Shown piece by piece: positions 2,747 to 61,220 of a stretch of 64,000 bases of DNA. The notes below the pieces were generated by a model that saw nothing but the letters and a program-made list of their open reading frames with translations, had not been told where the DNA came from and ran no database searches. Source of the DNA: Cyanidioschyzon merolae (Eukaryota); the NCBI GenBank assembly GCA_000091205.1, contig AP006487.2. One strand, given 5' to 3'. Numbering within the stretch: the stretch's first letter is position 1; each line of letters opens with the position of its first letter. Made by a program: the position numbers and the translations under genes.

Positions 2747-3939
2747 GATTGGCGGACTGCAATCCGGTTGAGGATTTGCTCACTGTGCACCATTGCCGAC
2801 TGCATATAGATGACGAGCCCCAGTCTTATGAAGACAAATGGTGCAAGCAGGCTTTCGGTCATAAAAATGGTTTCTTGGGCACTGGCAGCGAGCCTACGAT
2901 TCTCGCTTAACGAACGAACGGCATGCATCCGATTTCAGTCGAAGCGCTATACATTGGTGGATGTGTTGTGCACCGGTGCGGGTAAAGCGCCATCCTGCAT
3001 CGACAGATGAGCTGTACGTCTCGCAAAAAGCGTGCAGTATGGCATCGCCGGTTGAGATGTATGCCTCGCAGCTGACGCGCTGTATATTCTCAGGGATGCT
3101 GTATCCTGCTCTAAGGGAATTGCCACTTCGTCGTCCGTCCCTTTACAAGTTGCCAGCCGCGCTCACAACAGGAGCGAATGGGACATATTCCCTCGACAAC
3201 TGCTGACTGCGAAACGCGAGCCTGAGGTTGGTGTCGAACCTGAGAAACACCGCTCCGCTTTAGTTCTACTTGTGTAACCAGATTTCCGCGTGTATCCTTT
3301 CAATTAGCCACATGTCTGGCTTCTGCAGTACGTCTGGCCAGCCGCAGGAAGCCCCACGTCGCTACCTCAACCGATCAGCGTTCTCGCTTCCTACACGCCA
3401 CCGCGCAAGCGACCTTTCACGAGGATCGTTCACAGGGACGGTTCGTACCTACCCGCGCAAAATTGTGCGCAGAGAGAAAAAAAGCATACCTAGCGATAAC
3501 GAGGTCAACAAAGCCGCAGTCGCCCCGTGTCCAGAAAACCAGGTACCGCTATTCAAGGGCTGCGCGCTCGGCAGAGAGCTGTACTCGAGCGTAATCCTTT
3601 TCTTTCGCCGCTCCTTTACCCAAATTCCGCGAAAAGTTTTCCAGTTGAAAACTTTGGGACGGTGATTCCGCCCAAAGTATGCACGAGCAACCAAAGAAGA
3701 CTGCTTCGTGCTCATGAACGACTTTGGAGACAAAGCGCCAGCTCCTAGCGAAGCACCCACACAGCGCTAACGAATAGTTGAGCACTGCGCGTTCCTGTTG
3801 TTGCTAACGTCACCTGCACAGGATGCAGGCTCGTTTATGCCTCGAGCTGACACTCGCAGATGCATCACATGCCATACACTGCCTTCGTGCGAGGCCTGCG
3901 ACGTGTCCAGCATCTACAAGGTTGCACGACGGATGAAGT

Positions 3940-4120
3940 CTCCATTCCATACGGGAATACTCCACAGGGCATCCGCGAATGCTGCCCAGCATCCCTAGCT
4001 ATGCGGGATGCAGTTTGTCTCCATTCCATACGGGAATTCTCCACAGGGCATCCGCGAATGCTGCCCAGCATCCCTAGTTGTGCGGGATGCAGTTTGTCTC
4101 CATTCCATACGGGAATTCTA
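3940..4120. repeat. about 79-bp tandem repeat, about 2.4 copies ('tccattccatacgggaat(a/t)ctccacagggcatccgcgaatgctgcccagcatccctag...gcgggatgcagtttgtc')
   Basis: direct reading: near-identical units begin near 3941, 4018 and 4096 (partial). Confidence 0.8.
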
Positions 4121-10059: not shown

Positions 10060-10269
10060 TGCGGAGAAGCTTGTCTACTGGGTCTTGCTATAGCGGAACG
10101 CACTCATTCAGCGCTTTCCGTCCCTTGGTATCCGAAGCCGACCCAAGTGTCATCGTGTACGCGATGTTTCGTAAACCTCGCCGCGGTAGCCCGCGGATCA
10201 TGTACCGTTGCCTGGCCTCAGGATGGAGCGAGTTCGAAACGAAAACAGTTGCCTGCAAAAATATTAAAG

Positions 10270-10875
10270 AAAAAATGTGCCTGGTGGTGTCAGAATCCAA
10301 CAATTTTGGAACTAGAAAATAGTTTTCTGAAAAGATGTTGACAGAAAAAGTGCCTGGTGGTGTCAGAATCCAACAATTTTGAAACTAGAAAACAGTTGTC
10401 TGAAAAGATGTTGACAGAAAAAGTGCCTGGTGGTGTCAGAATCCAACAATTTTGGAACTAGAAAATAGTTTTCTGAAAAGATGTTGACAGAAAAAGTGCC
10501 TGGTGGTGTCAGAATCCAACAATTTTGAAACTAGAAAACAGTTGTCTGAAAAGATGTTGACAGCAAAAGTGCCTGGTGGTGTCAGAATCCAACAATTTTG
10601 AAACTAGAAAATAGTTTTCTGAAAAGATGTTGACAGAAAAAGTGCCTGGTGGTGTCAGAATCCAACAATTTTGAAACTAGAAAACAGTTGTCTGAAAAGA
10701 TGTTGACAGAAAAAGTGCCTGGTGGTGTCAGAATCCAACAATTTTGAAACTAGAAAACAGTTGTCTGAAAAGATGTTGACAGAAAAAGTGCCAGTAAGTG
10801 TCAGAATCCAACAATTTTGGAACTAGAAAATAGTTTTCTGAAAAGATGTTGACAGCAAAAGTGCCTGGTGGTTTG
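10270..10875. repeat. 73-bp minisatellite, about 8.3 tandem copies, two alternating unit variants
   Basis: unit 'aaaaagtgcctggtggtgtcagaatccaacaattttg(g/a)aactagaaaa(t/c)agtt(tt/g)tctgaaaagatgttgacag', with starts at about 10272, 10345, 10418, 10491, 10564, 10637, 10710, 10783 and a truncated unit at 10856. Confidence 0.9.
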
Positions 10876-16629: not shown

Positions 16630-17530
16630 ATCAGGTGTTGAGGGCGTTCTCGGCAACCGCACGCTTTCCCTCTCTCTCCGTCTCTCTCGCGCTCTCTCTC
16701 GCTCGCTCTGATCTCCGGCTTCAATGGCGCAGATGGCTCTATTCCATATCGAGTCGTTGTCAGCGGTCGAAGGACGTTGAGGGCAGCTCGTAACTGCCGA
16801 TCTCGCCGCACCCAGCTGTTGTCGACGCATTCAAACTGCAGGCGGACGCTGCGGACCAGGAAGCTCATTCGTAAACAGCCTCGACACGCCTTTTGCACCA
16901 TAGACGCTTGGCTACGGTCACGTGTTCCCATGCGTTCACCGCACACCCGCATCCAACTCCTCGTCTGGCTCCTGCATTGCCTCCGCCTCCTCCGCCTTCC
17001 AGCGTCATCCAGTGGTGCCTGAACGCATGCTTCATCGCTCGATACATGACGCTGACCAGTTACCGACGTCTACCACGAATGTCATGCCTCATTATCGCGC
17101 TCGATGGCATACCCGACGAATCACGAGCATCTTCGGGGTGATCCGCTCCGCTCGTTTCTTGTGAGATGCAAGCGCAAGCACGCGCTGTTGTATTCGATAG
17201 AGGATTTGCAAAGCGCGATCTTGTCAATGGTAAAACAAGTACAACAAGCGAAATCCAGGCTGGAAAAGGCGTCGAAAAACTTCCAATCAATCTATGCTCC
17301 ATTCGTGCAAAGCGGTACCGCGCTCCCCAATGAAGTTGATCCCTGCATCGCCTCCGGTCCGGGTATAAGACCATTTTCCATGCTAACAGAGGAGATGGGA
17401 GCCTCTGGCACCATATCCGCTCAAAAGCGTGCTGCTGCTGCTGCTGCTGCTGTAGAATGTTGTCTCGTCCATGCTCATAGAGAAAGACGATTTTCTGTAT
17501 CGAAAGGAATCGATTATTTGACGCGCAAAC
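16630..17530. repeat. dispersed composite repeat, locus R1 (module B plus a diverged junction plus module C)
   Basis: About 16650-17275 is about 97% identical to 22700-23330, including a (CT)n-rich stretch. 17380-17480 shares module C ('ttttccatgcta...gctgtagaatg..cgtct.gtc.atg') with 26670-26790 and 37385-37445. Confidence 0.85.
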
Positions 17531-21487: not shown

Positions 21488-22684
21488 TGCGCGTTCGTCA
21501 CATATTCGAACGATTGTAAACCAGTTTTGCCTCAGGCATCCGGGAGCAGGATCTCAGCACAGCGTTCTGGACGATGCTGGTCGCGTTTTGCGAAAAGCGT
21601 ATCCGCTGCAGCGAACGACTGCGAACGGCTCATGGATGCGTACGGTCATGCACGGGGGGCGCCCACAACGACACCCGCTCAGTGGTTTCGGGAAGGTGTT
21701 CTTGTTTTTTTCGTCTCCGAGTTTTGCGTTCGCACCGGGGCTGTCGACGCCACTGGGAGCATCCACGGCAGACTCGGCGCACGATGGAACATGAGAAACG
21801 CCCAGTATCTCCGAAGGGACCAGGGTTGATGGAATTCGGCAGTATGCCATGGAATGATGGACGCTTTCTCGGTCGCTTATAGCAAGCGTGCTACCCTCTT
21901 TCGTATATAGATTCGGTGGATCGAAAAGGCAGCTGCTCCTTGCACGCGTTCTACGATGACCGCGACGCTGGCAGGGCAGGTAACGCTCCCCGTATGCGTT
22001 CTAGCGGGTTGGCGTCGAGTGCACAGCGGCCCAGCGCTCGCCATCGTTATCCGAACGATATAGACGGGGTTCCAGACCGTACCCAGCGCTGAAGCAGATA
22101 CATGTGCGCCCCAGATATCGCCGCATCTCTGCAGCAACACCGACAAGCACCGCGTTGGCATGAGCGCTGGCCACCATCGGTAGTTGAGCACGCCCGGCAA
22201 TGCCGTGCACGCTGCTCCGGGCCGGAGCAAACCACGTGTTGTGTTTCGGACGCAAGACTCCTGGTCGATTGCTGCAAGTACGCTGATTCGATGCGTGTTT
22301 GCATGAGTTCAGTCGAGCGATATGGACAGGGGCGAGCTGCTGTGCCTTGTGCTGAATGCGGAGCATGCCCATCGCCTGGAACGGTGAATGTCGTTGCCGG
22401 TATGGATACCAGCGAGCTACCGTAACTGAGGATACCGGGAGCTCAGATCCATATAAGCCAAATCAGGTACATAGTGGTGTTGGTGGATGATATCAGCGGT
22501 AGCAGCGTCTTCTTAGAAAACAGGTATCTGCTGAAACAACAAGCGTTCTCTTGAACACGGCCGCACCGCCTGACGAGCGCTTGTCTCATTGCCTCAATAC
22601 ACGTGTTCGCGTAAAATGCAGCATGATGACTGACAATGGCGTATATGCTCAAAATTCGGCAGCTTTTCGAACGATTATGAGTAC

Positions 22685-23828
22685 CATCATTGGTGGGCGT
22701 TATCGGCAACCGCACGCTTTCCCTCTCTCTCCGTCTCTCTCGCGCGCTCTCTCTCTCGCTCGCTCTGATCTCCGGCTTCAATGGCGCAGATGGCTCTATT
22801 CCATATCGAGTCGTTGTCAGCGGTCGAAGGACGTTGAGGGCAGCTCGTAACTGCCGATTTCGCCGCACCCAGCTGTTGTCGACGCATTCAAACTGCAGGC
22901 GGACGCTGCGGACCAGGAAGCTCATTCGTAAACAGCCTCGACACGCCTTTTGCACCGTAGACGCTTGGCTACGGTCACGTGTTCCCATGCGTTCACCGCA
23001 CACCCGCATCCAACTCCTCGTCTGGCTCCTGCGTTGCCTCCGCCTCCTCCGCCTTCCAGCGTCATCCAGTGGTGCCTGAACGCATGCTTCATCGCTCGAT
23101 ACATGACGCTGACCAGTTACCGACGTCTACCACGAATGTCATGCTTCATTATCGCGCTCGATGGCATACCCGACGAATCACGAGCATCTTCGGGGTGATC
23201 CGCTCCGCTCGTTTCTTGTGAGATGCAAGCGCAAGCACGCGCTGTTGTATTCGATAGAGGATTTGCAAAGCGCGATCTTGTCAATGGTAAAACAAGTACA
23301 ACAAGCGAAATCCAGGCTGGAAAAGGCGTAGAAAAACGTTGACTGCAATCGATGATTCGCATTGCCGAGTTCAGCGCTATCTCAGCATTGCTATGTGATC
23401 AAGTCATCCAGGGAAGATCTCGGGTGTTTGCTCTCGTCCATCCAGCGGCGCGAATCGCTGTGCCCACAAATCCCCTTGAACCTGATTGGTAGAAAACCTG
23501 ATGCATGCAAAGTCTGCGCATACTCTATCTGTTTGACACGGAAAAGCATGCAGATTGCTACCCAGGACCTGGACCATGAAACCGGTTGGTTTACGAATCC
23601 TCGTTCGAGGGCGTCGCCATGCATCGGTCTTGCGGTGCCGCAACGATTTCCAGTGGCACAGCGCCCAGAGCGCCACGCCCAGGAGACAAGCGAGAATCCC
23701 AAGAATTCGGACGAATCTGTAAGACCCCATTGCTACACTTCGGTTATCGAAGCTGTACACCTGAACAGCATTCCGATAAAAATCTCAAGCCAGGACTAGA
23801 GCCAGCAGTCCAGTGTCCCATGTTCATC
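22685..23828. repeat. dispersed composite repeat, locus R2 (module B directly joined to module A)
   Basis: B is about 22700-23330 (matching 16650-17275). A is about 23345-23828 (matching 26816-27298 and 37466-37948). Confidence 0.85.
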
Positions 23829-24085
23829 GGACATAGGTATCGAAACAGACAATGTTCACTTCAAGGGTATCCTGATGTCTGCCCCTGCAATGCCTGAAAA
23901 ATCTCACTTGACGACACATCGACACGTCATGCACCATTCGAATGGTGGCGAATGACCAAAACGCGGCTGCAGAGCATCGCGCTCCATCCGGTCGCATCGC
24001 CGATACGCGCTGCGAATCCAGTACCGAAGCGTCCGAAACATGCCGAGGTAGACTCGTCATCGCTTGCGTCGACAACAAGGAACGC

Positions 24086-25320: not shown

Positions 25321-26589
25321 GAAGTCGTCGATTGCTGCGGCGGATTGCGCGGGCGCGATGCATTCGCGGTGGCGTTTTTCTCCAGTTGATGGTGTTCCAG
25401 CTGCAGATGCGTGCCACTGCATGTGCTTTTTTGCGATCTATAGCAGACGCGGTCGAATTGGATTCACTTGAAGGATTTAAAACATCTAGGAGAATGGTAT
25501 GGGCGTAAAAGTGGAGGATTTTGGAGCGTCGCCATCGCTCGGTTCTGCAAAGAAACGGGAACGATCCTCCTCTGACTGACGATCGTGCGACGAAGACGAA
25601 GAAGAACAGGGCAGAGTAGGCGAGAAAGTGTGTTTGCCTAACGAGATCATCACGGAACTGTAGTGGCAGAGAGGACGCAAGATCGAGGAATCATCGCAGT
25701 GGTGCGTTCAGCTTGCTGCGGAGCACATAGAGAACTCGTGAAGCGAGACTTCAACGCCGCCGTCGATACCAGAAAAGGTGCGGTACCGCAGACGAGAGAC
25801 GCGAGCGATGTGACGCGGGCGAAGGTTGCGGGCCAGCCTCACAGCATCGGCGTGTACGGGGTTAAGCTGAAGCCGATAGCAGGCGGCTGGTCAAAACAAG
25901 CAGGGAGGCGTCTGAGCGTAGGAATGTAAATATCATTCACGGTCGAGGGACATTTTTTGTTTTCCTGACCCTCTCCAGGATACAATGAAGCATGTTGCCT
26001 GACCAGGGCGTAAACGCTCAAGTTCGGGCTCTTTTTTAACGATCTTGAATACTTGCGTTCGCGGGCCTGTCTGTAACCGCTTCCTTTGCCTGTCTCTCGG
26101 ATTTCCGGCTTTCAATATGCGAGTCCTTTGTTTTCCTGTGGATCCGTTGTAATCAAAAGAAGGACGTTTATGGCAGTTTGAAGGCCCCGATTCTGAAGTT
26201 CCAGGCTGTTCTCGACACCGCTAATGCACAACTGGAGGTTGCGATCAACGCTTTCGTTGTGTTCTTGCGATCTTCTTTGGATAGAACTGCGGTGTGCTCG
26301 TCGCAGCGGTGAGAGTTGCCTGTCATCAGATGTTCGCATGCGCCCAACAAATTCCCTCGTCCGAGCGATTCCCCTCTGTCGTGGAAACGCTTGCTTCAGC
26401 GCTCGATGCATTGCCTCAACGGATACGGAAAGCGCGACTCGATGCTTTGCTGCGGTGAAGCCTCTGGGCGATGCCCGCGGCGAGTACCCTCGTTGCGGCA
26501 CGGCGCACGCGCACGCTGTTCCATAAGGCAGAGAATTTCGTGGAATGCACAATGTCGTCCATGATGAACCAAGTATCCGACGGGAAGTG

Positions 26590-27298
26590 AAGGCCTGGGT
26601 AGACTTGGAAAAATTTCGGTTCCTGTACGCTACCTCCATGCGAAGCAGTCGATATGATGAATCAGGTCAGAGTCCGATGCCCTTTTCCATGCTAAATGAA
26701 GCGATGGGAGCCGCTGGTACCGCATCAAAAGAGAGCTATGATGGTGATGGTGATGCTGTAGAATGGCGTCTTGTCGATGAACACATATAGGGGGAAAAAG
26801 GCTGGCCTTTCGGACGCAATCGATGATTCGCATTGCCGAGTTCAGCGCTATCTCAGCATTGCTATGTGATCAAGTCATCCAGGGAAGATCTCGGGTGTAT
26901 GCTCTCGTCCATCCAGCGGCGCGAATCGCTGTACCCACAAATCCTCTTCAACCTGATTGGTAGAAAACCTGATGCATGCAAAGTCTGCGCATACCCTGTC
27001 TGTTTGACACGGAAAAGCATGCAGATTGCTACCCAGGACCTGGACCATGAAACCGGTTGGTTTACGAAACCTCGTTCGAGGGCGTCGCCATGCATCGGTC
27101 TTGCGGTGCCGCAACGATTTCCAGTGGCACAGCGCCCAGAGCGCCACGCCCAGGAGACAAGCGAGAATCCCAAGAATTCGGACGAATCCGTAAGACCCCA
27201 TTGCTACACTTCGGTTATCGAAGCTGTACACCTGAACAGCATTCCGATAAAAATGTCAAGCCAGGACTAGAGCCAGCAGTCCAGTGTCCCGTGTTCAT
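26590..27298. repeat. dispersed composite repeat, locus R3 (module C plus module A)
   Basis: module C is about 26590-26815 and module A is 26816-27298. Confidence 0.85.
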
Positions 27299-28194
27299 TC
27301 TGACCCAGCGGTAGTACCTGATGCGTCGATTATTCGCGTCATGCGGTCGAGAATTCTCGAGCGACCACTCAGCCATGCAGCTGCGAGCGCGCTGACATAG
27401 CGTAGGCGCTCAGAAGCGGCGTCCTTGAATAACCTATCGGATGGTGCGCCCGCTGAACACCGTGCTCTATCAACGCGGTGCTGGGAGCGTTCAGACTACC
27501 CCAGGAACATCCAGTGTCGATATCGGAGCTCAATGCGGAGCTCGAATACGCGACTGGCGCTGGCCGTGTACTAGGAATATAACCCACTCACAATGAGCAT
27601 AAACGTATCATCTCAACCTACAAGAGAAAGAGACTATCTGTCAAGCAGCTTTTCGAAACTCCCCTCGAGTTTCTCAGACACGACGAGCAGCACGGCGGCA
27701 CGATGCAGCAGCATTAGATAGCAGACGTGCAGCTGGAGCACGGCGTCGTACCGAACCCGGCGCCGCACTGCGCACTTTCCAGCACCTCCGAGCCAACACC
27801 GTATGCTGACCCAAGGATACGAGAACGCTGCTCCATCTCCTTGCAGCGTCCGGAGCGGCGCTACATACGTCATGCTGGGCGATCGTCGCAGGCAAGCGGT
27901 ACGCCATAGGATCGTACGAACCAAGCATGATCTCTTCCAAAAGAAAGTATCGTTCGATCTGATCAATAGTGCTAGCTGGTAGAGCTTGGATGGATGGTGC
28001 GGTATCATACGCACGACTCTAGATACCGATATGCATCGCGTTATCGATCATTCTCTGTGGGCAAAGGCAACGATCCGTCGATGAAAAGATATCATCGGTC
28101 GCATCCTCGAGCCGACGCCCGCTGTGTGTGGCACGACAACGCCGCTCTGTCTCTGTGAAGCGACCGCATCGGCGCTATAGGTGCCATTGCTGTC

Positions 28195-28270
28195 GCTTTC
28201 GGGAGGCACTAGGCACACACGATAGGACGCACGAAACGACCAGTATATTCGAGAAGAAGTATAGGTCATG
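28195..28270 (-). repeat. third, partial copy of the conserved block-1 motif that marks the left module of the Fanzor-like elements
   Basis: The reverse complement 'ccaagttacatgacctatacttcttctcgaatatactggtcgtttcgtgcgtcctatcgtgtg' is about 80% identical over about 75 nt to 56760-56835 and 39285-39360. Confidence 0.7.
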
Positions 28271-28530
28271 TAACTTGGAAGTAGGGCGTCTGATAGATAC
28301 CTCACCGCGCACTGAAAAAAAAAGAAAGAAGAGCAAAATGCGCATAATCGGAGAACGCTGGCCGAACTTCAAGTTCTGTGAATGAAGAAATAAAAATCGA
28401 ACGCTGTCGAGGCGCCAGAGCGGCAATCCCCACAGGCGCGACGCAGACTCGCGTCTGCACGAGTACGACGGCCCAACAGCGCTAGTCTGCCGCTGTGTGC
28501 GTGATTGGGCACTACGAGCCCTGGCACCAC

Positions 28531-37379: not shown

Positions 37380-37948
37380 TCAGCATCGCGGATACCGTGC
37401 TGCTGCTGTAGAATGGCGTCTCGTCGATGAACACATATAGGGGGAAAAAGGCTGGTCTTTGGGACGCAATCGATGATTCGCATTGCCGAGTTCAGCGCTA
37501 TCTCAGCATTGCTATGTGATCAAGTCATCGAGGGAAGATCTCGGGTGTTTGCTCTCGTCCATCCAGCAGCGCGAATCGCTGTACCCACAAATCCTCTTCA
37601 ACCTGATTGGTAGAAAACCTGATGCATGCAAAGTCTGCGCATACCCTGTCTGTTTGACACGGAAAAGCATGCAGATTGCTACCCAGGACCTGGACCATGA
37701 AACCGGTTGGTTTACGAATCCTCGTTCGAGGGCGTCGCCATGCATCGGTCTTGCGGTGCCGCAACGATTTCCAGTGGCACAGCGCCCAGAGCGCCACGCC
37801 CAGGAGACAAGCGAGAATCCCAAGAATTCGGACGAATCCGTAAGACCCCATTGCTACACTTCGGTTATCGAAGCTGTACACCTGAACAGCATTCCGATAA
37901 AAATGTCAAGCCAGGACTAGAGCCAGCAGTCCAGTGTCCCATTTTATT
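37380..37948. repeat. dispersed composite repeat, locus R4 (partial module C plus module A)
   Basis: partial module C is about 37380-37465 and module A is 37466-37948. Confidence 0.85.
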
Positions 37949-38600
37949 TGAACATCTGTGTCGGATACGTCGTGTGAGCGCGTTCCTAGTCGCGCGGTCC
38001 AGGGTGCCTGCACACCGTTTTTCATCAATGGGGCGGAACAAACGACGTACCGCAAAAGACCCGGCCAGGTCATGTCCGTCGCAACAACGGAATACTCGCG
38101 TCGACTAATTCCACTGTTGCATGTCGTTCTTCTTAAAGCGCGCTGAGGAAACATCCAGCGTCTTCCAAACGCAGTTTGAGCAGGGATCGCTGATGCCGAT
38201 CCACGGATTCCAGGTGCACAGATCCCGCTCAAATACCCGGAGTTGATGCGCTCCTCCAGGTGATGAGCGTTGTGCCCTGTCGTGATCGCGCGTTGCAGTG
38301 CTGGAGCACCGTGTTCCTTCCGGTGGACGCTTCGCATGACATGATGAGCATAAACAACAACGGGGCCCGTGCAGGTAGATACGGTCAGCCTTGGCTCGGA
38401 AACCTGTGCACCGCTCGCGCTTACCTATGCGTTCACGCTGCTTCATGCGGGAACACAAGCGCCACCGGCACCACGTTCATTTCGTGGCATTCGGATGTCA
38501 TGCTGGAGCAGACGTATGCCCGTGACCACATAGGAAGCGCCCGATCCAAGTCTAAACGGGGCCCCAGCGACAACCTGCAAATCACGGTGCTCCGCCGTAG

Positions 38601-39023
38601 CTACGAGTGCTGTGTAAAGCGCGTTCGACAGCGACAGCACTCATAGAGGATGGTTTGACCCTCATCTGCGCTGCGCATCTGCACAGTCTCGTAATAGAGC
38701 TCCTGACTGTTACATTTGGGACAACACTCGCCCCCGCGAACGACTTGACGCGTTGCTTCCATGGACGGATCCGTGGTCAGTGCAGCGGCGGCGGACCCAG
38801 CGCGCCCGTCCTCACCGGAGACACGCTTCGTATACGCCGCTTGCAGTTCTAAAAGAAGTTGTGTAGGTCGCACAGGGACCTCGTACACGATGGTTTTCTG
38901 AGGCAAGGGCGGCAACGAGCCACAGCCGACACACGGTTTTGGCTCGCCGGCTTCGACTGGCTCCCTGTAGCGTCCGCAGCAGTCGCAGAACTGTGTTTCC
39001 ACCCAGTCCTCAATGGAGGCCAT
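38601..39023 (-). CDS. DNA-directed RNA polymerase small subunit with TFIIS-type zinc ribbon (RPA12/RPB9/RPC11 family)
   Basis: The N-terminal zinc ribbon is 'CDCCGRY...CVGCG'. The C-terminal ribbon 'CPKCNSQELYYETVQMRSADEGQTILYECCRC' carries the invariant 'RSADE' acidic loop. Confidence 0.75.
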   Translation of the reverse strand: MASIEDWVETQFCDCCGRYREPVEAGEPKPCVGCGSLPPLPQKTIVYEVPVRPTQLLLELQAAYTKRVSGEDGRAGSAAAALTTDPSMEATRQVVRGGECCPKCNSQELYYETVQMRSADEGQTILYECCRCRTRFTQHS

Positions 39024-39139: not shown

Positions 39140-40800
39140 TAGAGGCACTGACCACGCAGCGGGTCGATGACGTACAACGCGCGTGGTTTTCTGTTTTGGC
39201 AGAACGTTGATCTGGACCATGGATACTAGATCCTGGGATGGATATTGCTGTTCGGGAAAGCGTCCATTAGTCTTCACTCTACCTCCGAATTCCATGACCC
39301 ATACTTCCCCTCGGATGTACTGGTCGTTTCGTACGTTCCATTGTGCACCGAGCGCATGCGATGGGCGTCTACGCTAGCGAATGTACTGCTGGGGCGGATG
39401 CAGCACGGACAGAGAACGGCTTGGCCATGCCATTCAGGCCGTCCACTCGAGGCGCAGTGCCTAGGGCGCGGAGTAGGAACTCATCCTCAACCTGGGAGCC
39501 AGCAAGCTGCGCAGACAGACCTACTGCCCGTGACAGTGCGGAGCGATTTGCTCGGATGATCCGGCGACCGGTGGAATACCTGGATGTAGCCTAATCACGA
39601 CTAGTCCAGGAAGAAAGTGCCTCGCGGGCGAGTTGCTCAGGTCGCAACCCCTGTATCCGCCGCGGGAGGCAGCACGAAGCACTTGCCTGGCACACTCGTC
39701 CGGCTCGTGGGACGCTCCACCTGGAAGGTAAACTTGCAGGAATGTGGAAAATTTTGCCCCCTTTTACCGTTTCTCGTCCAGGGGAAAGAAACTGTTATCG
39801 AGTTGCTCGGTAGTGGGTATTTTCTGTCTTTCGGCACAGTTGCAACGAGTAAGCGGTTACTTTCTGGTCTTAGCACCTCGGATGCCTCGTCGAATCATTG
39901 AAGACCTGTCCTGGACGTCCGGCGATGTCCTCGTACTGGACAACATGGCGTTTCACCGTTGCCCTTAAGTTCGAGCAGCAGCTTCTTATTCCTCCTCCGT
40001 GCACTCGTTTGTTGAACCGTATTGAAGGAGTGTTATCTTTCGGGAAATATCATGATCGCCCGAGTAAGCGAATCGCTGAAACGTTCAGTACACGATGACA
40101 CTAAGGCACATGTCGTCTTTTTTCCGCAAGTCCTTCGTCCTCCGGTAAGGTCCTAACCCAAGCGCATAAACAAGTGCGATCATTCCCAATAATAAAGCAT
40201 CCAAGGGATAAGCCAGAACAGACACTCCAGAAAGTCGAAAATGAGAGAAGCCAGCGGAGCGCTCCGGCGATAGAAACCCACAGAGAGCTGACAGAGCAGT
40301 AAATGGCACAGAAGAAACCAGTCCGAGGAATCTCTGGTTTGGCGAGATCAACCAGAAGTAAAATACATATAGAGTTCGTGAACCGCGACTCCAACGCCGC
40401 CATCAATATCACGAGATGTGCATTCCGAAACGCGACACCTGTGAAGCTCACACGAGCGAACTTTGCGGGACACCCCCCTGAGGATCCAAATGAACACGGA
40501 TAAACTGAAACCGATAACCGTCAACCAGGCAAAAAACGACCGCGATGCATCCGCGCCCCCCGAGTACCCATCTGTAGCCCGTCGACGTGAGACGCGCGCG
40601 ATCCGGACACGTCTCGTGAACGGATCGCGCGCGTGCATGCAGGTGCCGCTGCGCCACTCGCTCGCGGAACACCAACTGCTCCCTCGATCGGCGCTCGCGG
40701 GTGGAACGGCGCAGCGGCGCTGGGGCGCTCACCTGGCGGCCGTCGCACTCGACAGCACGCAGCGCTGCGATGCGTGCCGCATCCGGATCCGTGCGGCGGG
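39140..40800 (+). mobile_element. internally deleted Fanzor/TnpB-like element (copy 2): conserved left module, nuclease C-terminal relic, conserved 3' tail
   Basis: 39140-39730 shares four conserved blocks with 56630-57190. 40130-40503 is homologous at protein level to the C-terminus of the 58116-59706 nuclease. About 200 nt of non-coding homology follow the stop codon. The boundaries are approximate. Confidence 0.5.
40130..40503 (+). pseudogene. Fanzor/TnpB-like nuclease C-terminal fragment (RuvC-III 'NRDSNAAINITRC') with an in-frame stop
   Basis: Frame-1 translation '...LQKVENERSQRSAPAIETHRELTEQ*MAQKKPVRGISGLARSTRSKIHIEFVNRDSNAAINITRCAFRNATPVKLTRANFAGHP' aligns with '...LQRDEMEKCHRRSEDIEKYGPLTEERMERRAKVRGLVAFVSRNRGEKGVECANRDFNAAVYIRRCAVPEKRPEESTRANFVGHP' of copy 1. 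The RuvC-II region is degenerate. Confidence 0.6.
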
Positions 40801-56253: not shown

Positions 56254-56629
56254 TGTCTGAGAGATTCTAATCTTTCTTTATGGTTCCGCACAGTCGCCAA
56301 TTCGCTTGCAGTATTTCGAATCGATACGCGTGGAGGTACTGAAAAGCAGTCGTATCTCAAAGCATCGTCCATATTTGGGTAACGCTGATACCTCTAAAGG
56401 TTCTAAAACCCGTGCTATCTCAAAACAAGGGACACGGCACGCCCGGCGCCTGTTCGTTCTTTGGACCCAATCAAGCATCGATACCAAAAGCAAGCCCTAT
56501 GTGGAGGCCACAAAAACGTAGAAGCATTTAGGTAGAAACTATAAACGCTCCCCTGGTATCTGGAACCCTTGCGGTATCCAGCGCGTCACATATGGCACGC
56601 TGTACGAATGCACGCCGCCCTGACCCTGC

Positions 56630-59600
56630 CATGCATCGACAGCAGCAGCGCGGGCGTGATTTTACTTCGATCACAAAATTCGTTTCCAGGGGCCATGGAT
56701 CCCAGATTGCGCGATGGGCAATGGCTCTGGGGAAAGTCTCCACGATGATGCATCCACGGCCAAGTTCCATTGCTTATACTTCCTTTCGGATGCACTGGTC
56801 GTTTCGTACGTTCTGTTGTGTGCCGAGTATCTGCCTTGATGCACCAGCAATAGCGCTTATATCCCTGGTAAGGATACAGCGCGAAGACAGAGCGGATTCT
56901 TCATACTACTGACGGCGTCGAATCGAGGAATGCTACATTTATTGACAGGGAGTCACGGCAAATTATCATTCTGGGAGTCTGCAAGCTGCGCAGACAGCAT
57001 TCTGCCTGTGGCAGCGCGAAGCGATATACTAGGAGTCCACTGCCACTAGTGCGACGTCCAGACGCAGCCTGATTGCCCCTAGTCCCAGAACAGACTGCGT
57101 TGCGGACGAGCTACGCAGATCTCTCTAAAGCACCAGCCAGTTTCGAGGCACACCGAGCACCAGCCCGGCAAACTCGTCCGGCGCGCTGCACTGTTCACCT
57201 AGAAGAAAAACTTTCGACAACATAGAATCCTTTTCCCCCTTTTAATGTTTATCACAGAGGGAGAGAAGGAATTGTAATCTCGTAAGTGGATCATAGTGAT
57301 TCTCTGTTCTTTGTTCTAAATAGTGCGGTTGATACTCGCATCTGGGAGATCTGGCCGTCACGAGGCACGACGCGCATCTCGCCGTTGAAGGGAAACACGT
57401 TTCTGATCAATACCGTGTTGCTCTAATGTACAAGTTATATTTGGGTTAAAATCATAGCGAATTATAGTCTTTCAATTCAATTCTATTTCAATTCTCAGGG
57501 GAGTGTATTCAAGTGATTTTTCGCGGTGTATATTAGAAGCTTTCAAAGAGTCTTCTTTTTCAAAAAATTAAAGAAGGAAAGATATAGAAAGGAAAGTAGA
57601 GGATCCCGGCGGGCCGTTTTCTCCGGCTGTCGGAAAGAAACGGAACGCAGTGCCAAGCAAAGAGGAACACGACAGGACGAAGAAGCGAAAGAAGGATGCC
57701 AGACGTCAAAAGCTGCGAGCAAGTCGACAGTACGACGAGATAGGAGCCAAAGCCCTTCTTCTACGCCGCAGCAAGGATCCCTAAAGCAAATAACGCATGA
57801 GGTCATCAAAAAAACGTGTCGCGTCTTACGCTATGAGTATTATAAAGGCTTCTTCAGGACTGATGCATTGTCGAAGATGTACGACAACGTGACGGAAATT
57901 CGAAGAGTCGAGGTTCCGGCAGAGTTTATCAACAGGACCTTTATTCGCCTCCTGATGGTTGGCACAGGGGAAACGCCGAGGAGAAATGAGCGAGAGCATG
58001 TCCTCCACGAAAATCACAAGGAATACCGCTTCAACGGTACTCGGCACAGGGACGGCGCGGATATCTACACATACGGTGTGAAAAGTACCTCACGAACCTG
58101 AAGAACCATTTCATAATGAGCCTCAAACGCTTCGTGATACGCGCCGTCTTTGCACTCTACCCGGGTATCTCTCGCAGAGGCAGACGGGCCAGCATCGATG
58201 GCATCACGAACGACAGCAGGAGTGAACGGGAGATCGAATTCGTCCACGAGGAGACTTCAAACCGGAGTATGAATGAAGCTTCCGTGGCCCGTGCGGCTAT
58301 GCAAGAGCACCGTGCGGTCTTAGGGCTTGTCAACCCAGCGGAAAAGATATCAGATATGAAAAAGGATGGAAAAGGTGCGATTCCCTCATCCTGCGTTATT
58401 TCGTGTCCCTGAACCGAGAGCGCGAACGCAAGGCCGATATGGCGCCGGCCCTAAAAAATCGAGAGTCGGACAAACGGAAGGCTTTCCTACGAGAGAGGCG
58501 CTTCAACGTTGTTCGGATTTGCGGGATCAAGTCGGATTTCGTGACCATCAACTCCAGCGTCCTCTACTGGATCATGAGGAAGATCAGTATAGAGTTCTGT
58601 GTAAGCAACAAGGAATTCATCGGCGAGAGCCGGGAAACGTATTGGAAGAATATCCTCGATCTGAAGCGTCTCAAAACGAGCATGCGAGGGGTATCCGCGG
58701 GGATCGTCGAAACCGATAGGGTATCCATAGGTGTTCACTGACGGCGCTTGAGGGCGGATCGCCCGGTTCCATCTTCGTTGTCACCCGTGACGGAGCATGA
58801 AGGAAAGAAGGAGGCGGATCCTGCGACGCCGGCGGTGCAGGAGAACGACCGTGTCGTTGGCACGGACCGCGGAAATACGAATACCATAATCATCGCAGTA
58901 CCCAAGCCTGGGGAAGATGGTATTGACGGCAACTTATGCGAGAAAGACACGCGACTTTTGGAGTTCGCGAGAGCGAGCTATGACCGAGAATCCGGTATAA
59001 TGAATGCCAGGAAGAAAATTGAGACATGGAATGCAGGAGTCAAGGAAGAGCTGGAAGCGATCAGCCAGGTGCCTATCCGCGGAGCGGACTTTCGAGATTT
59101 TCGGGAGCTCGTGAAAATTCGCGTTGCTCATTGCGAGGATCTGTGCAAGGGGTTTGCAAAGTACCGGCTTGGTGGGCTCGTCACCACACGAACTTGTACT
59201 GTGGGGAGCAGTGTCTATTCGCGAGCTTTTCCAACCAGCTGGGCGCCCTCAAGGAAGACGATAGTCAAAGGCTCGTAACAGCGTGTGAAGCAGAGCGCTG
59301 GGCGCCAAAACAAAAGGAGTGTACGCCCGCTCCGTCGCCACGAGCGTACAAGGAGTACGCACGGCGTTTTGTTACGATACATGTAGATGAGTTCCGAACT
59401 TCATACATACAATACGAGTTGGGGTGTCCGCTCCAGAGGGACGAGATGGAAAAGTGCCATCGACGCTCTGAGGATATAGAAAAGTACGGACCGCTGACGG
59501 AAGAGCGAATGGAAAGGAGGGCGAAAGTTCGAGGACTAGTCGCATTCGTAAGTAGAAACAGAGGCGAGAAAGGTGTGGAGTGTGCGAACCGAGACTTTAA

Positions 59601-59950
59601 TGCCGCTGTGTATATCAGGAGATGCGCAGTGCCGGAGAAGAGACCCGAGGAGTCGACGAGGGCCAACTTTGTGGGGCACCCCTATTCCCCCTCCGCCCCG
59701 AGGTGAAATTGCACGCGAATACGTTGAAACCAGCAGTAGGTGGCCAGTCAAGGAAAACGGGTAGGCGTCTGCACGCCGGTGCGTGGACATCCAGCCTACG
59801 GCCGGGCGGCGCGCTGCCCGCCACCACTGCACACCAGAAGCGCAGCGTTTGCCGCCTGGAAGAGAGTCGTTGCTGCCGGTGTTCCTCTAGTCGAGTTTAA
59901 GAGTTTGGACCGGTCGTTCCTGTAAATCTCGATGAGATTGGGATTTTAAA
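56630..59950 (+). mobile_element. Fanzor/TnpB-like element (copy 1): conserved left module, AT-rich island, frame-disrupted nuclease gene, conserved 3' tail
   Basis: Left module is 56630-57190, with blocks shared with 39140-39730. An AT-rich island follows at 57190-57600. The nuclease relic spans 58116-59706. The 3' tail of about 250 nt runs to the next gene (59970) and is homologous to 40503-40750. Confidence 0.5.
58116..59706 (+). pseudogene. Fanzor/TnpB-like RuvC nuclease gene, frame-disrupted (or intron-interrupted)
   Basis: The RuvC-I motif 'RVVGTDRGNTNTIIIAV' lies at about 58850-58900 in frame 2. The RuvC-II motif 'IRVAHCEDLCKGFAKY' is also in frame 2, with the E codon at 59135. After a shift to frame 1 near 59175-59200 come 'RRFVTIHVDEFRTSYIQYELGC' (the conserved TS motif that precedes the zinc finger), a degenerate zinc finger 'C...C.H', and the RuvC-III motif 'ANRDFNAAVYIRRC' with the D codon at 59593. 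An in-frame TGA at 58739 and at least one frameshift break the reading frame. A possible N-terminal 'RFVIRAVFALYPG' lies in a third frame at 58116. Confidence 0.6.
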
Positions 59951-59969
59951 CGGGTGGTCATCACCGCTT

Positions 59970-61220
59970 ATGAGTGCCTTCTTCGCCAAAGTTCGGGGGG
60001 CGTTCCAGAACGTAACTTCGTTTGCGGCGGACGCCAGCTACGACGAGGAGCTCAATCGCCTCATTCAGCGCTGCAAGCAGTACAAGGATGTGAACGATAT
60101 GATTATCAAGCAGGCCAAGCTATATGACACGTCGCTGCGGGACCTTTCATCCGTGGGACGTGCAGCCGGAGAAACGTACATGTCCATAGCTAGCTTTCGA
60201 AGCTTCCCTGGCGGCGCTGTCGCGGGAGAGTCAGACTTGCGGCTGGCGCAGGCGCAAGGTTCGTTTCGAACCAGGAGTATAAGCTCGCTTAGCACGGCGG
60301 ATGCCAGTGACCGGAGCACAGGAGCGGGATCCTTCTATCTGTACCGGAGCGACGAACGTCGCGTGCTAGCGCAGCTCGGCCGAGCAGAGCGCGCTGCGCA
60401 CCAGGCACAGGCTGTGTTCGCAGAACGTATTTCGGCCCCGATTATCCTCGAGGGCCGTCAGTTTAAAGAGCGGTACGATGAGTTGCGACGGCTCAAGTCG
60501 CTCTACAAACGATGTAAGCGAAGGTACATTCAGGCACAAAGAGCTCTGGCATCGGAGAAAGCGAAGCGGGTTCCTTCTATGGAAGCACAGGTGAAGCTCG
60601 TGGCCAAGCTTGCGGAGCACGAGGAAGAGTTCAAACGCGTGACAGAGAAACTGTTCGTTCACGCAAAGGCACTCGAAGATGAACATCACTATTCGGTCAT
60701 GCAACATGTTTGCGGCTTTCTATTGCACCATTACAACGCACTCGTTATCTCCTTGCGCGCTATCAAGAACGTGATCGCCATCGCAGAGAAACACATTCCG
60801 GAGAAAATTCAGCTTGAGAGGCTGGAAAGCCTTGCCATCGAATTACACAAACTCTTGCCGTCAGCGGAAGCATTTGAACACGCTGGATTGGGAGGGACGG
60901 ACGCCGTACCTAGTTTGCCGGATAGTTCCCAGAGTTCGTCTGCTGGACGTGAGGATGAGTCGGAGCTTCGTCTGCGAATACAGCGCTCGGAAGAACTACT
61001 CAGCGTGGCGAATGCCGAGTCTCAGCGGTGGAAGATGCTTTATCTCCAAGCAGAGCGAAAGAATCGCGCACTTTACCTCGAGAATCACCGTCTTAAGAAT
61101 ATGATGCATGGAGTTGATTGCTCCTCTATCCGAGACGACCGACAGTCCACTTCTTCGTTCATGTTCGATGATCAGCGGTTGATGACTGAGGCGCAGGCCC
61201 GGCGAGGTCATATCACCTAG
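59970..61220 (+). CDS. coiled-coil protein, possibly BAR-domain-like at the N-terminus
   Basis: 416-aa ORF. The N-terminus 'FAKVRGAFQNVTS...DEELNRLIQRCKQYKDVNDMIIKQAKLY' resembles BAR-domain starts. Long heptad-like helical regions follow. The family is not confirmed. Confidence 0.55.
   Translation: MSAFFAKVRGAFQNVTSFAADASYDEELNRLIQRCKQYKDVNDMIIKQAKLYDTSLRDLSSVGRAAGETYMSIASFRSFPGGAVAGESDLRLAQAQGSFRTRSISSLSTADASDRSTGAGSFYLYRSDERRVLAQLGRAERAAHQAQAVFAERISAPIILEGRQFKERYDELRRLKSLYKRCKRRYIQAQRALASEKAKRVPSMEAQVKLVAKLAEHEEEFKRVTEKLFVHAKALEDEHHYSVMQHVCGFLLHHYNALVISLRAIKNVIAIAEKHIPEKIQLERLESLAIELHKLLPSAEAFEHAGLGGTDAVPSLPDSSQSSSAGREDESELRLRIQRSEELLSVANAESQRWKMLYLQAERKNRALYLENHRLKNMMHGVDCSSIRDDRQSTSSFMFDDQRLMTEAQARRGHIT

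Follow-up and report, generated by a model that had tools for sequence, protein, structure and literature searches.

The stretch of DNA analysed here (hereafter the window) comprises 64,000 nucleotides of one strand of contig AP006487.2 of the red alga Cyanidioschyzon merolae (assembly GCA_000091205.1). Its character is eukaryotic, with a GC content of about 55% and long, intronless open reading frames (ORFs). The ORF at 59970–61220 is identical to CME033C, a protein of C. merolae 10D, and the ORF at 38601–39023 on the minus strand encodes an RNA polymerase I subunit that matches the protein of this strain exactly. Shortly 5′ of CME033C lies a Fanzor-like sequence, with a second one near position 40,400, and a preliminary description had read the sequence behind both as a conserved noncoding tail and a candidate guide RNA (omega-RNA) scaffold or right transposon end. 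These Fanzor-like ORFs are decayed copies of CMe-1A, a Fanzor1 transposon family of the C. merolae genome (Bao & Jurka, 2013, Mob DNA 4:12; PMC3627910), of which the window holds three. As judged from profile searches and multi-copy alignments, the segment 59700–59882 is the 3′ end of one such decayed Fanzor1 element, made up of a frameshifted coding remnant and a right end of about 80 nt.

CMe-1A was described as present in about 150 copies with about 80% identity to their consensus, about 3 kb long, without terminal inverted repeats (TIRs) and with undetermined target-site duplications (TSDs), and Bao & Jurka left it unclassified (PMC3627910). The 635 bp at its 5′ end correspond to the TE-N2_CMe repeat at 95% identity, and neither its 3′ end nor any RNA was described (PMC3627910). 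The element and its Fanzor1 protein are therefore already catalogued for this genome, and the omega-RNA concept is established; none of the papers searched describes a guide RNA for the family. Judged against the published description, the sequence upstream of CME033C (copy 1) shows the expected nucleotide homology over about 3 kb, with a TE-N2_CMe-like 5′ part followed by a Fanzor1 ORF. The 5′ part of this composite copy (56657–57283, plus strand) has 64.8% identity over 571 nt to 39214–39775, blastn pairing the latter with 56690–57253; further TE-N2-like fragments are found on the minus strand at 28176–28278 and 21756–21819.

The Fanzor1 module of copy 1 (57309–59904, plus strand) is a pseudogene of almost full length, interrupted by several frameshifts and stops. 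An nhmmer profile built from 23 full-length relatives matches it at 57309–58836 (1209 bits) and 58786–59904 (E = 3.8e-247). Its ORF pieces (58116–58412, 58403–58741, 58748–59278 and 59026–59706) are spread over three frames, and between them they keep the three TnpB/Fanzor RuvC motifs, as GTDRGNTN, VDEFRTS and NRDFNAA. The consensus of the relatives translates into a single ORF of about 730 aa, in which the motifs read GxDPGNTN, VDEFRTS and NRDFNAAINI. The last piece in frame 1 (59026–59706, plus strand), which carries RuvC-II and RuvC-III, ends at a stop made by a frameshift. Its product has 57 homologues, nearly all of them unnamed JGI/ENA metagenome proteins; it shares 92% identity with an orthologous metagenome copy and 54–68% with most of the other members of the family. 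Scanning metagenomes confirmed 466 related stretches, for which 80 loci were returned, and an exhaustive HMMER search yielded 1069 representative protein clusters (E <= 0.001), many of 600–700 aa.

Membership of the Fanzor1/TnpB superfamily is indicated by the aspartate of RuvC-I, the glutamate of RuvC-II and the aspartate of RuvC-III, together with similarity to Fanzor1 proteins that have been characterised. The profile built from 30 relatives (A5) matches Parasitella parasitica PpFz1 (PDB entry 9cf0; E = 3e-19), Spizellomyces punctatus SpuFz1 (8gkh; E = 1.4e-13) and Guillardia theta GtFz1 (9cer; E = 2.9e-7), and the stretch aligned with these solved structures covers the RuvC motifs. Neither the single consensus sequence nor a narrow family profile (A1) found a Fanzor or TnpB match in the PDB. 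The Pfam search returned nothing for the ORF pieces of the window and only a non-significant PF07282 match for the family consensus (E = 1.6), PF07282 being reached by the relatives below threshold as well (E = 5e-4 to 0.09). The C4 zinc finger (OrfB_Zn_ribbon/TNB) looked for between RuvC-II and RuvC-III was not found: that stretch has just two cysteines in the family (HELGCTLQRVEMEKCQR...RGLLALVS), with a motif RGLLALVS or RGLLWCxS, and the zinc-ribbon domain appears, from these alignments, to be degenerate in the CMe-1A Fanzor1 clade. The AlphaFold2 model of one family protein (P0008), computed from a 15-sequence alignment, had a predicted local distance difference test score of 38 and was unusable. 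Finally, it should be noted that a coding unit of about 75 nt (..KDEEKKEADPATQEVEDNDFVVG..) just 5′ of RuvC-I occurs once in the window copy (58786–58865) and as two to five tandem copies in relatives (L015, L062, L075 and L076 among them), forming a variable-number repeat within the Fanzor1 ORF.

The preliminary description took the tail after the stop codon of copy 1 as noncoding. This does not hold for the first 100 nt or so. Frame 0 from position 59700 begins with EVKLHANTLKPAVGGQSRKTGRRLH..., and its full reading over 59700–59796 (plus strand) is EVKLHANTLKPAVGGQSRKTGRRLHAGAWTSSL, the counterpart of the family C-terminus KVELYEKKLEAVVGGRSKKTGRRLHVSWRRFV that directly precedes the stop; in intact relatives the ORF ends in ...GGRSKKTGRRLHVSWRRFV or, over a longer stretch, ...TRENFVGQPLKVELYEKKLEAVVGGRSKKTGRRLHVSWRRFV, again followed by the stop. 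An nhmmer profile of 28 relatives spanning −96 to +86 around the family stop matches 59702–59882 (E = 2.6e-21). The main match that had been called noncoding is thus the last 33 or so Fanzor1 codons, displaced by a frameshift that, as read from this comparison, lies near 59685–59700 and produced the apparent stop at 59704–59706. In the multi-copy alignments the ancestral stop falls at 59797–59799 (plus strand), where the relatives have TAG and the window copy has TAC, followed by an insertion of about 8 nt. The orthologous metagenome locus (L002/L003) has the identical frameshift, so the pseudogene is old; the roughly 11 substitutions in 416 nt that separate this locus from the window are too few for a rate comparison. 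A GC hairpin, cacgccggtgcgtg, had also been reported at 59781–59794; it actually lies at 59772–59785, inside the coding remnant, and is specific to copy 1, its relatives carrying the non-palindromic CACGTCAGTTGG at this place.

The noncoding right end of copy 1 then occupies 59800–59882 (plus strand), as indicated by a profile of the strictly noncoding part, which matches 59808–59872 with E = 7e-5, and by the multi-copy alignments and the fold. On the same strand it contains a small hairpin GGCGCG..CGCC (59808–59823), a conserved motif ACCACTGCACAC (59824–59835; ACTACTGTACAC in the family) and a degenerate terminal hairpin (about 59832–59882) whose outer stem CACC/GCAGCG..CGTTGC/GGTG survives. 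The alignment to the family profile ends at 59882, and profile searches found no family homology past 59882–59904 in this copy. The segment 59883–59969 (plus strand) is unique flank up to the ATG of CME033C at 59970, common to the window and the orthologous metagenome locus; in an active copy, a guide would begin here. The right transposon end claimed at both loci is therefore retained for copy 1, and for copy 2 no tail can be detected. Two other readings were rejected: for 59800–59882 a promoter or 5′ untranslated region (UTR) of CME033C, because the stretch is family sequence and not specific to the locus, and a bacterial-type terminator, since C. merolae is a eukaryote.

In the relatives the consensus after the stop reads TAG-GGCGsG..loop..CGCC-ACTACTGTACAC-CGyyGG(CGA)-CGTCG-TTCGAC-TTT-CGAAmGGCG-TTTGGTG and then gives way to unrelated sequence. 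Homology persists for about 60–80 nt past the stop and then drops to background. The sharp end of homology expected before a guide is seen in 28 of the 38 aligned relatives, where it comes roughly 80 nt past the stop, the sequences becoming unrelated within about 10–15 nt once the terminal hairpin is complete. The fraction of bases matching the consensus is 0.74 at nucleotides 0–14 after the stop, 0.91 at 15–29 (GCCACTACTGTACAC), 0.70 at 30–44 and 0.67 at 45–59, and falls to the background of about 0.44 from nucleotide 60 onwards. The tail runs from the stop codon to about 80 nt beyond it, and it is always joined to the ORF, as would be expected of an omega-RNA locus: in the fetched loci the tail profile has 85 matches, every one of them next to the 3′ end of a Fanzor sequence, and a search of these loci for solo tails without the ORF found none.

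Copy 2 (40222–40482, plus strand) is an internally deleted and 3′-truncated fragment of the Fanzor1 gene without a detectable right end. The full-element profile matches it only over profile positions 2283–2546 (E = 2.3e-28) and ends at 40482 (envelope to 40509), and tail profiles run against 40470–40760 with nhmmer (--max, filters off) returned nothing. That both loci are Fanzor-like is borne out, TnpB/Fanzor-type C-terminal remnants being present at each: blastn joins 59578–59682 with 40372–40476 (67.6% identity), and in the tblastx alignment ...NRDFNAAVYIRRCA...TRANFVGHP stands opposite ...NRDSNAAINITRCA...TRANFAGHP. The similarity said to continue past both stops has a different standing. 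The tail of copy 1 is real family sequence, but its match to copy 2 is marginal or due to chance: in a Smith–Waterman comparison of 59683–59900 with 40477–40760, 262 of 500 shuffles reach the observed score. The 66-nt segment singled out in the preliminary description gives a local p of about 0.14 and a collinear global p of about 0.015 (30/2000 shuffles) against copy 2, and a faint vestige of these codons in copy 2 would be compatible with this collinear signal. For gcgctgcccgccaccactgc against gccgctgcgccactcgc, quoted as a second match, the score does not rise above chance (466/500 shuffles); the copy 1 string gcgctgcccgccaccactgc is itself a genuine family motif. About 110 nt past the end of homology in copy 2, and 5′ of a gene with a VHS/GAT domain, lies a perfect 14-bp GC-rich inverted repeat, ACGCGCGCGATCCG ... 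CGGATCGCGCGCGT (40592–40605/40621–40634); it may be a terminal hairpin of copy 2 that has diverged, or it may have no connection with that copy.

Copy 3, which was missing from the preliminary description, is an internally deleted CMe-1A remnant found by profile search at 25388–25561 and 25664–25919 (plus strand). It aligns with three loci (L084, L085 and L086) of what we call the 'LKP' subfamily, which had been fetched to add covariation and proved to have a different 3′ end: in this subfamily the sequence past ...GGGAGGCGTCTGC is unlike the main family right end.

For eleven relatives we folded a 146-nt segment that takes in about 78 nt on the 5′ side of the stop and about 68 nt on its 3′ side. 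The z-scores lie between −1.3 and −6.2, and most of these relatives share one architecture. The predicted sense-strand fold comprises the last 22 or so codons and the tail of about 80 nt. A closing helix pairs the coding CAGTAGTGG with the post-stop CCACTACTG and encloses two or three hairpins, namely a small one, GGAGGCGTCT..AGACGTTTT and GGCGGG-TTT-CTCGCC; it is followed by a terminal hairpin of 10–19 bp, and sequence conservation ends with the 3′ arm of that hairpin (GGCGTTkrTGGTG). On trimmed alignments the fold is recovered by RNAalifold with ribosum scoring; with default settings and unaligned flanks included it found almost nothing, trimming and ribosum scoring both being needed. For the whole consensus fold (alignment A3), 90.3% of cells are paired, compared with 35–56% when the pairing partners are slid, and the covariation score is 0.132 compared with 0.113 ± 0.006 for shuffles (1/500). 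The closing helix with its enclosed hairpins (A6) gives 88.3% compared with 37–61%, and 0.121 compared with 0.103 ± 0.007 (2/500), and the terminal hairpin of one subfamily (A8) gives 85.4% compared with 32–64%, and 0.156 compared with 0.115 ± 0.014 (1/500). Subfamilies keep the hairpin with other sequences, as in the compensatory variants TTCGA/TCGAA and TTCTA/TAGAA, and a TTTTTC..GAAAGG class pairs in a register shifted by three columns. The mean folding energy of the tail is −58.9 kcal/mol for the sense strand and −44.0 kcal/mol for the antisense strand, compared, at equal length, with −44.1 (sense) and −36.8 kcal/mol (antisense) for internal coding sequence and −46.6 kcal/mol for the downstream flank (sense). 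Of this fold the window copy has retained the closing helix (AGTAGGTGG/CCACCACT) and, in the terminal hairpin, the outer stem; taken as a whole, it does not fold better than its shuffles (z = +0.83).

Characterised Fanzor1 omega-RNAs are 75–150 nt long, are transcribed from the 3′ or right end of their elements, and consist of stem-loops followed by a guide derived from the flank; that of GtFz1 overlaps 17 codons of the ORF (PMC10432273, PMC11423790). It is because the CMe-1A segment shares with them its position, a flank in the place of the guide and, in its predicted fold, the length, the stem-loops and an overlap with the last codons that an omega-RNA is proposed here, and by this analogy a scaffold role in active members of the family is plausible. 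We read the segment as the 3′ end of a dead CMe-1A element in the window, and its counterpart in active members as a candidate omega-RNA scaffold with a flank-derived guide, a reading to which we give a probability of roughly 70%. On the model of TnpB and of the Fanzor1 systems with solved structures, the segment of about 150 nt would be transcribed in these members as the scaffold, the first 15–20 nt or so of flanking DNA would serve as the guide, and the same hairpin may double as a cis-acting end for transposition. The window copy would have lost this function, since its ORF is broken, its stop mutated, an 8-nt insertion added, the apex of its terminal hairpin degenerate and its fold no better than shuffles; copies 1 and 2 are both dead. 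The more specific proposal, that in intact CMe-1A the last 22 or so codons and the right end of about 80 nt form a functional Fanzor1 omega-RNA with a multi-hairpin scaffold of about 150 nt, a closing helix between coding and noncoding sequence and a guide beginning after the terminal hairpin, is tentative, and we would put it at somewhat below even odds.

Position, size, the sense-strand multi-hairpin fold and linkage to the ORF all speak for the scaffold suggested in the preliminary description, and several results weigh against it. Pairs with both sides changed are no commoner than in the slid controls, only the covariation score exceeding shuffles, so that the covariation is weak. Internal coding sequence also favours the sense strand, which makes the strand asymmetry partly compositional. 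Synonymous diversity is not reduced in the last 26 codons (0.24, compared with about 0.21–0.27 elsewhere; p = 0.68, or p = 0.32 with 4- and 6-fold sites only), and an RNA constraint extending into the ORF is therefore unsupported; the gap between third and first or second codon positions does narrow at the 3′ end of the ORF, mainly through relaxed first and second positions. Outside the 15-nt block GCCACTACTGTACAC, tail conservation (0.67–0.74) is no better than in comparison regions, third codon positions and the 5′ noncoding part of the element being conserved at 0.80–0.88. As for the boundary, 10 of the 38 aligned copies, about a quarter, diverge earlier, directly after ...CGTCGT, and the subfamily of copy 3, L084, L085 and L086 has a different and shorter 3′ end. 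An Rfam scan of 56500–60100 (E <= 1) found no match.

The lack of synonymous constraint and the weak covariation would both be expected if the tail acted as a transposon end at the DNA level only, with the hairpin and ACTACTGTACAC serving as cis signals for a transposase or the replication machinery, like IS200/IS605 or Helitron-type ends, and with no guide RNA involved. This is the main rival, although we consider it unlikely. It would account for the subterminal position of the hairpin and for homology stopping just past it, for a tail that is never seen apart from the element, and for the absence of TIRs and detectable TSDs (PMC3627910), as in single-strand or rolling-circle type elements. 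However, the window copy holds Fanzor pieces only and no transposase ORF, the consensus of the relatives is a single Fanzor ORF, and the Fanzor1 proteins picked up by the family profile work with a 3′-end omega-RNA. The many G–U pairs and the large advantage of the sense over the antisense strand also fit a sense RNA, though they would fit single-stranded DNA of the top strand too. Since TnpB systems combine both roles, a DNA end does not exclude an omega-RNA.

That tail conservation (0.67–0.91) is close to the element-wide level of about 0.8–0.88, third codon positions and 5′ noncoding sequence included, could also mean that the tail is an ordinary 3′ UTR or a region of mRNA 3′-end formation, conserved through recent descent from one master copy; the synonymous test, with no excess constraint, would agree. 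Such a 3′ UTR is improbable, because the fold is far more stable than shuffles or neighbouring sequence of equal length and the hairpin is kept across subfamilies with different sequences and registers; homology also ends directly after the 3′ arm of the hairpin. Lastly, that the similarity of copies 1 and 2 past their stops is due to chance and nothing in 59640–59950 is a feature agrees with the shuffles beyond the blastn segment and with the missing tail of copy 2, but it is refuted for copy 1, whose tail matches the family profile (E = 2.6e-21 overall, E = 7e-5 for the noncoding part alone) and is real whatever the status of copy 2, so that as a general account it is very improbable.

At the other end of the element, the TE-N2-like segment varies among the relatives. 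It stands inverted next to the Fanzor module in L001, L004, L005, L038 and L056, direct in L007, L014, L032 and L050, and is absent in L008, L010, L025 and others; in some relatives a conserved 5′ module of about 120 nt replaces it. The TE-N2-like or alternative module always lies a few tens of bases from the left end of the Fanzor module (about 57309–57337). This variability in orientation and presence makes CMe-1A look composite, as far as the arrangement of these sequences indicates, or else TE-N2 and Fanzor elements may target each other. The bases just 5′ of the left end are often ATCG; the insertion contexts are few and non-independent, so no target-adjacent motif was called. In three loci (L007, L020 and L032) the bases directly past the terminal hairpin are GTTTGTTTCCAGGGGT, which resembles the start of the TE-N2-like segment, cGTTTCCAGGGGccatgg (window positions 56683–56700), and may be a shared terminal or target motif.

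The window also carries other repeats. Dispersed repeats of about 500–640 bp with 97–98% identity, much younger than the Fanzor copies, pair 16642–17280 with 22695–23337, join 23345–23842, 26816–27298 and 37466–37963, and pair 26748–27290 with 37398–37940. A tandem array at 10233–10872 has a period of about 73 nt and about nine units of 88–95% identity; at 3938–4119 about 79 nt are duplicated in tandem, a shorter repeat than the array.

For the window itself the outcome is mostly one of annotation: the ORFs and the tail are relics of a family catalogued in 2013, and the similarity downstream of the ORFs is mainly frameshifted coding sequence. The gain is at the level of the family, for which we obtain the true C-terminus, a right boundary about 80 nt past the stop and a reproducible sense-strand fold, and with them a concrete, testable candidate omega-RNA for a red-algal Fanzor1. 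Hot-spring metagenomes are rich in this family, as the 466 stretches and 1069 protein clusters given above indicate, and the coordinates show which RNA to co-express in a test of a heat-tolerant Fanzor. If the proposal is true, acidic hot-spring Cyanidiales would carry, in hundreds of copies, a naturally thermo- and acid-adapted eukaryotic RNA-guided nuclease, and the frequent juxtaposition with TE-N2 in either orientation might reflect RNA-guided homing.

Compared with CMe-1A as published, the elements described here agree in genome, in length (about 3 kb), in a TE-N2_CMe-like 5′ part of about 630 bp, in one TnpB-like ORF with D..E..D RuvC motifs, in the many decayed copies and in the absence of TIRs. 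They differ in that the Fanzor module also occurs without TE-N2, with an inverted TE-N2 or with another 5′ module, and in that the family has at least two types of 3′ end.

With the 3′ ends of Helitrons the CMe-1A tail has in common a hairpin a few bases from the 3′ terminus and the absence of TIRs and clear TSDs. Helitron membership (5′-TC, CTRR-3′ and a Rep/helicase ORF) was nevertheless rejected: the CMe-1A terminus is ...GGCGTTTGGTG in place of CTRR, and there is no Rep/helicase ORF among the ORFs of the window or in the family consensus, which is a single Fanzor ORF. Another comparison is with the right end of IS200/IS605 elements and the TnpB omega-RNA (right-end element RNA, reRNA). In both cases one segment would be transposon end and guide template, with a subterminal hairpin and a scaffold that would reach back into the last codons of the nuclease gene. 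Unlike IS200/IS605, CMe-1A has a eukaryotic host and no TnpA-type transposase in the element, and unlike TnpB its protein belongs to the Fanzor1 clade and is without the four zinc-ribbon cysteines.

A further comparison is with the omega-RNAs of GtFz1, SpuFz1 and PpFz1 (Saito et al., 2023, PMC10432273; Xu et al., 2024, PMC11423790). The CMe-1A tail has no sequence similarity to them and no Rfam model, and an equivalent of their 7-bp SL1 was not identified with confidence. Like them, it lies at the ORF's 3′ end and at the element's right end, its predicted fold of about 150 nt compares with stem-loops of 75–150 nt followed by a flank guide, and it would overlap about 22 codons of the nuclease gene where the GtFz1 RNA overlaps 17.

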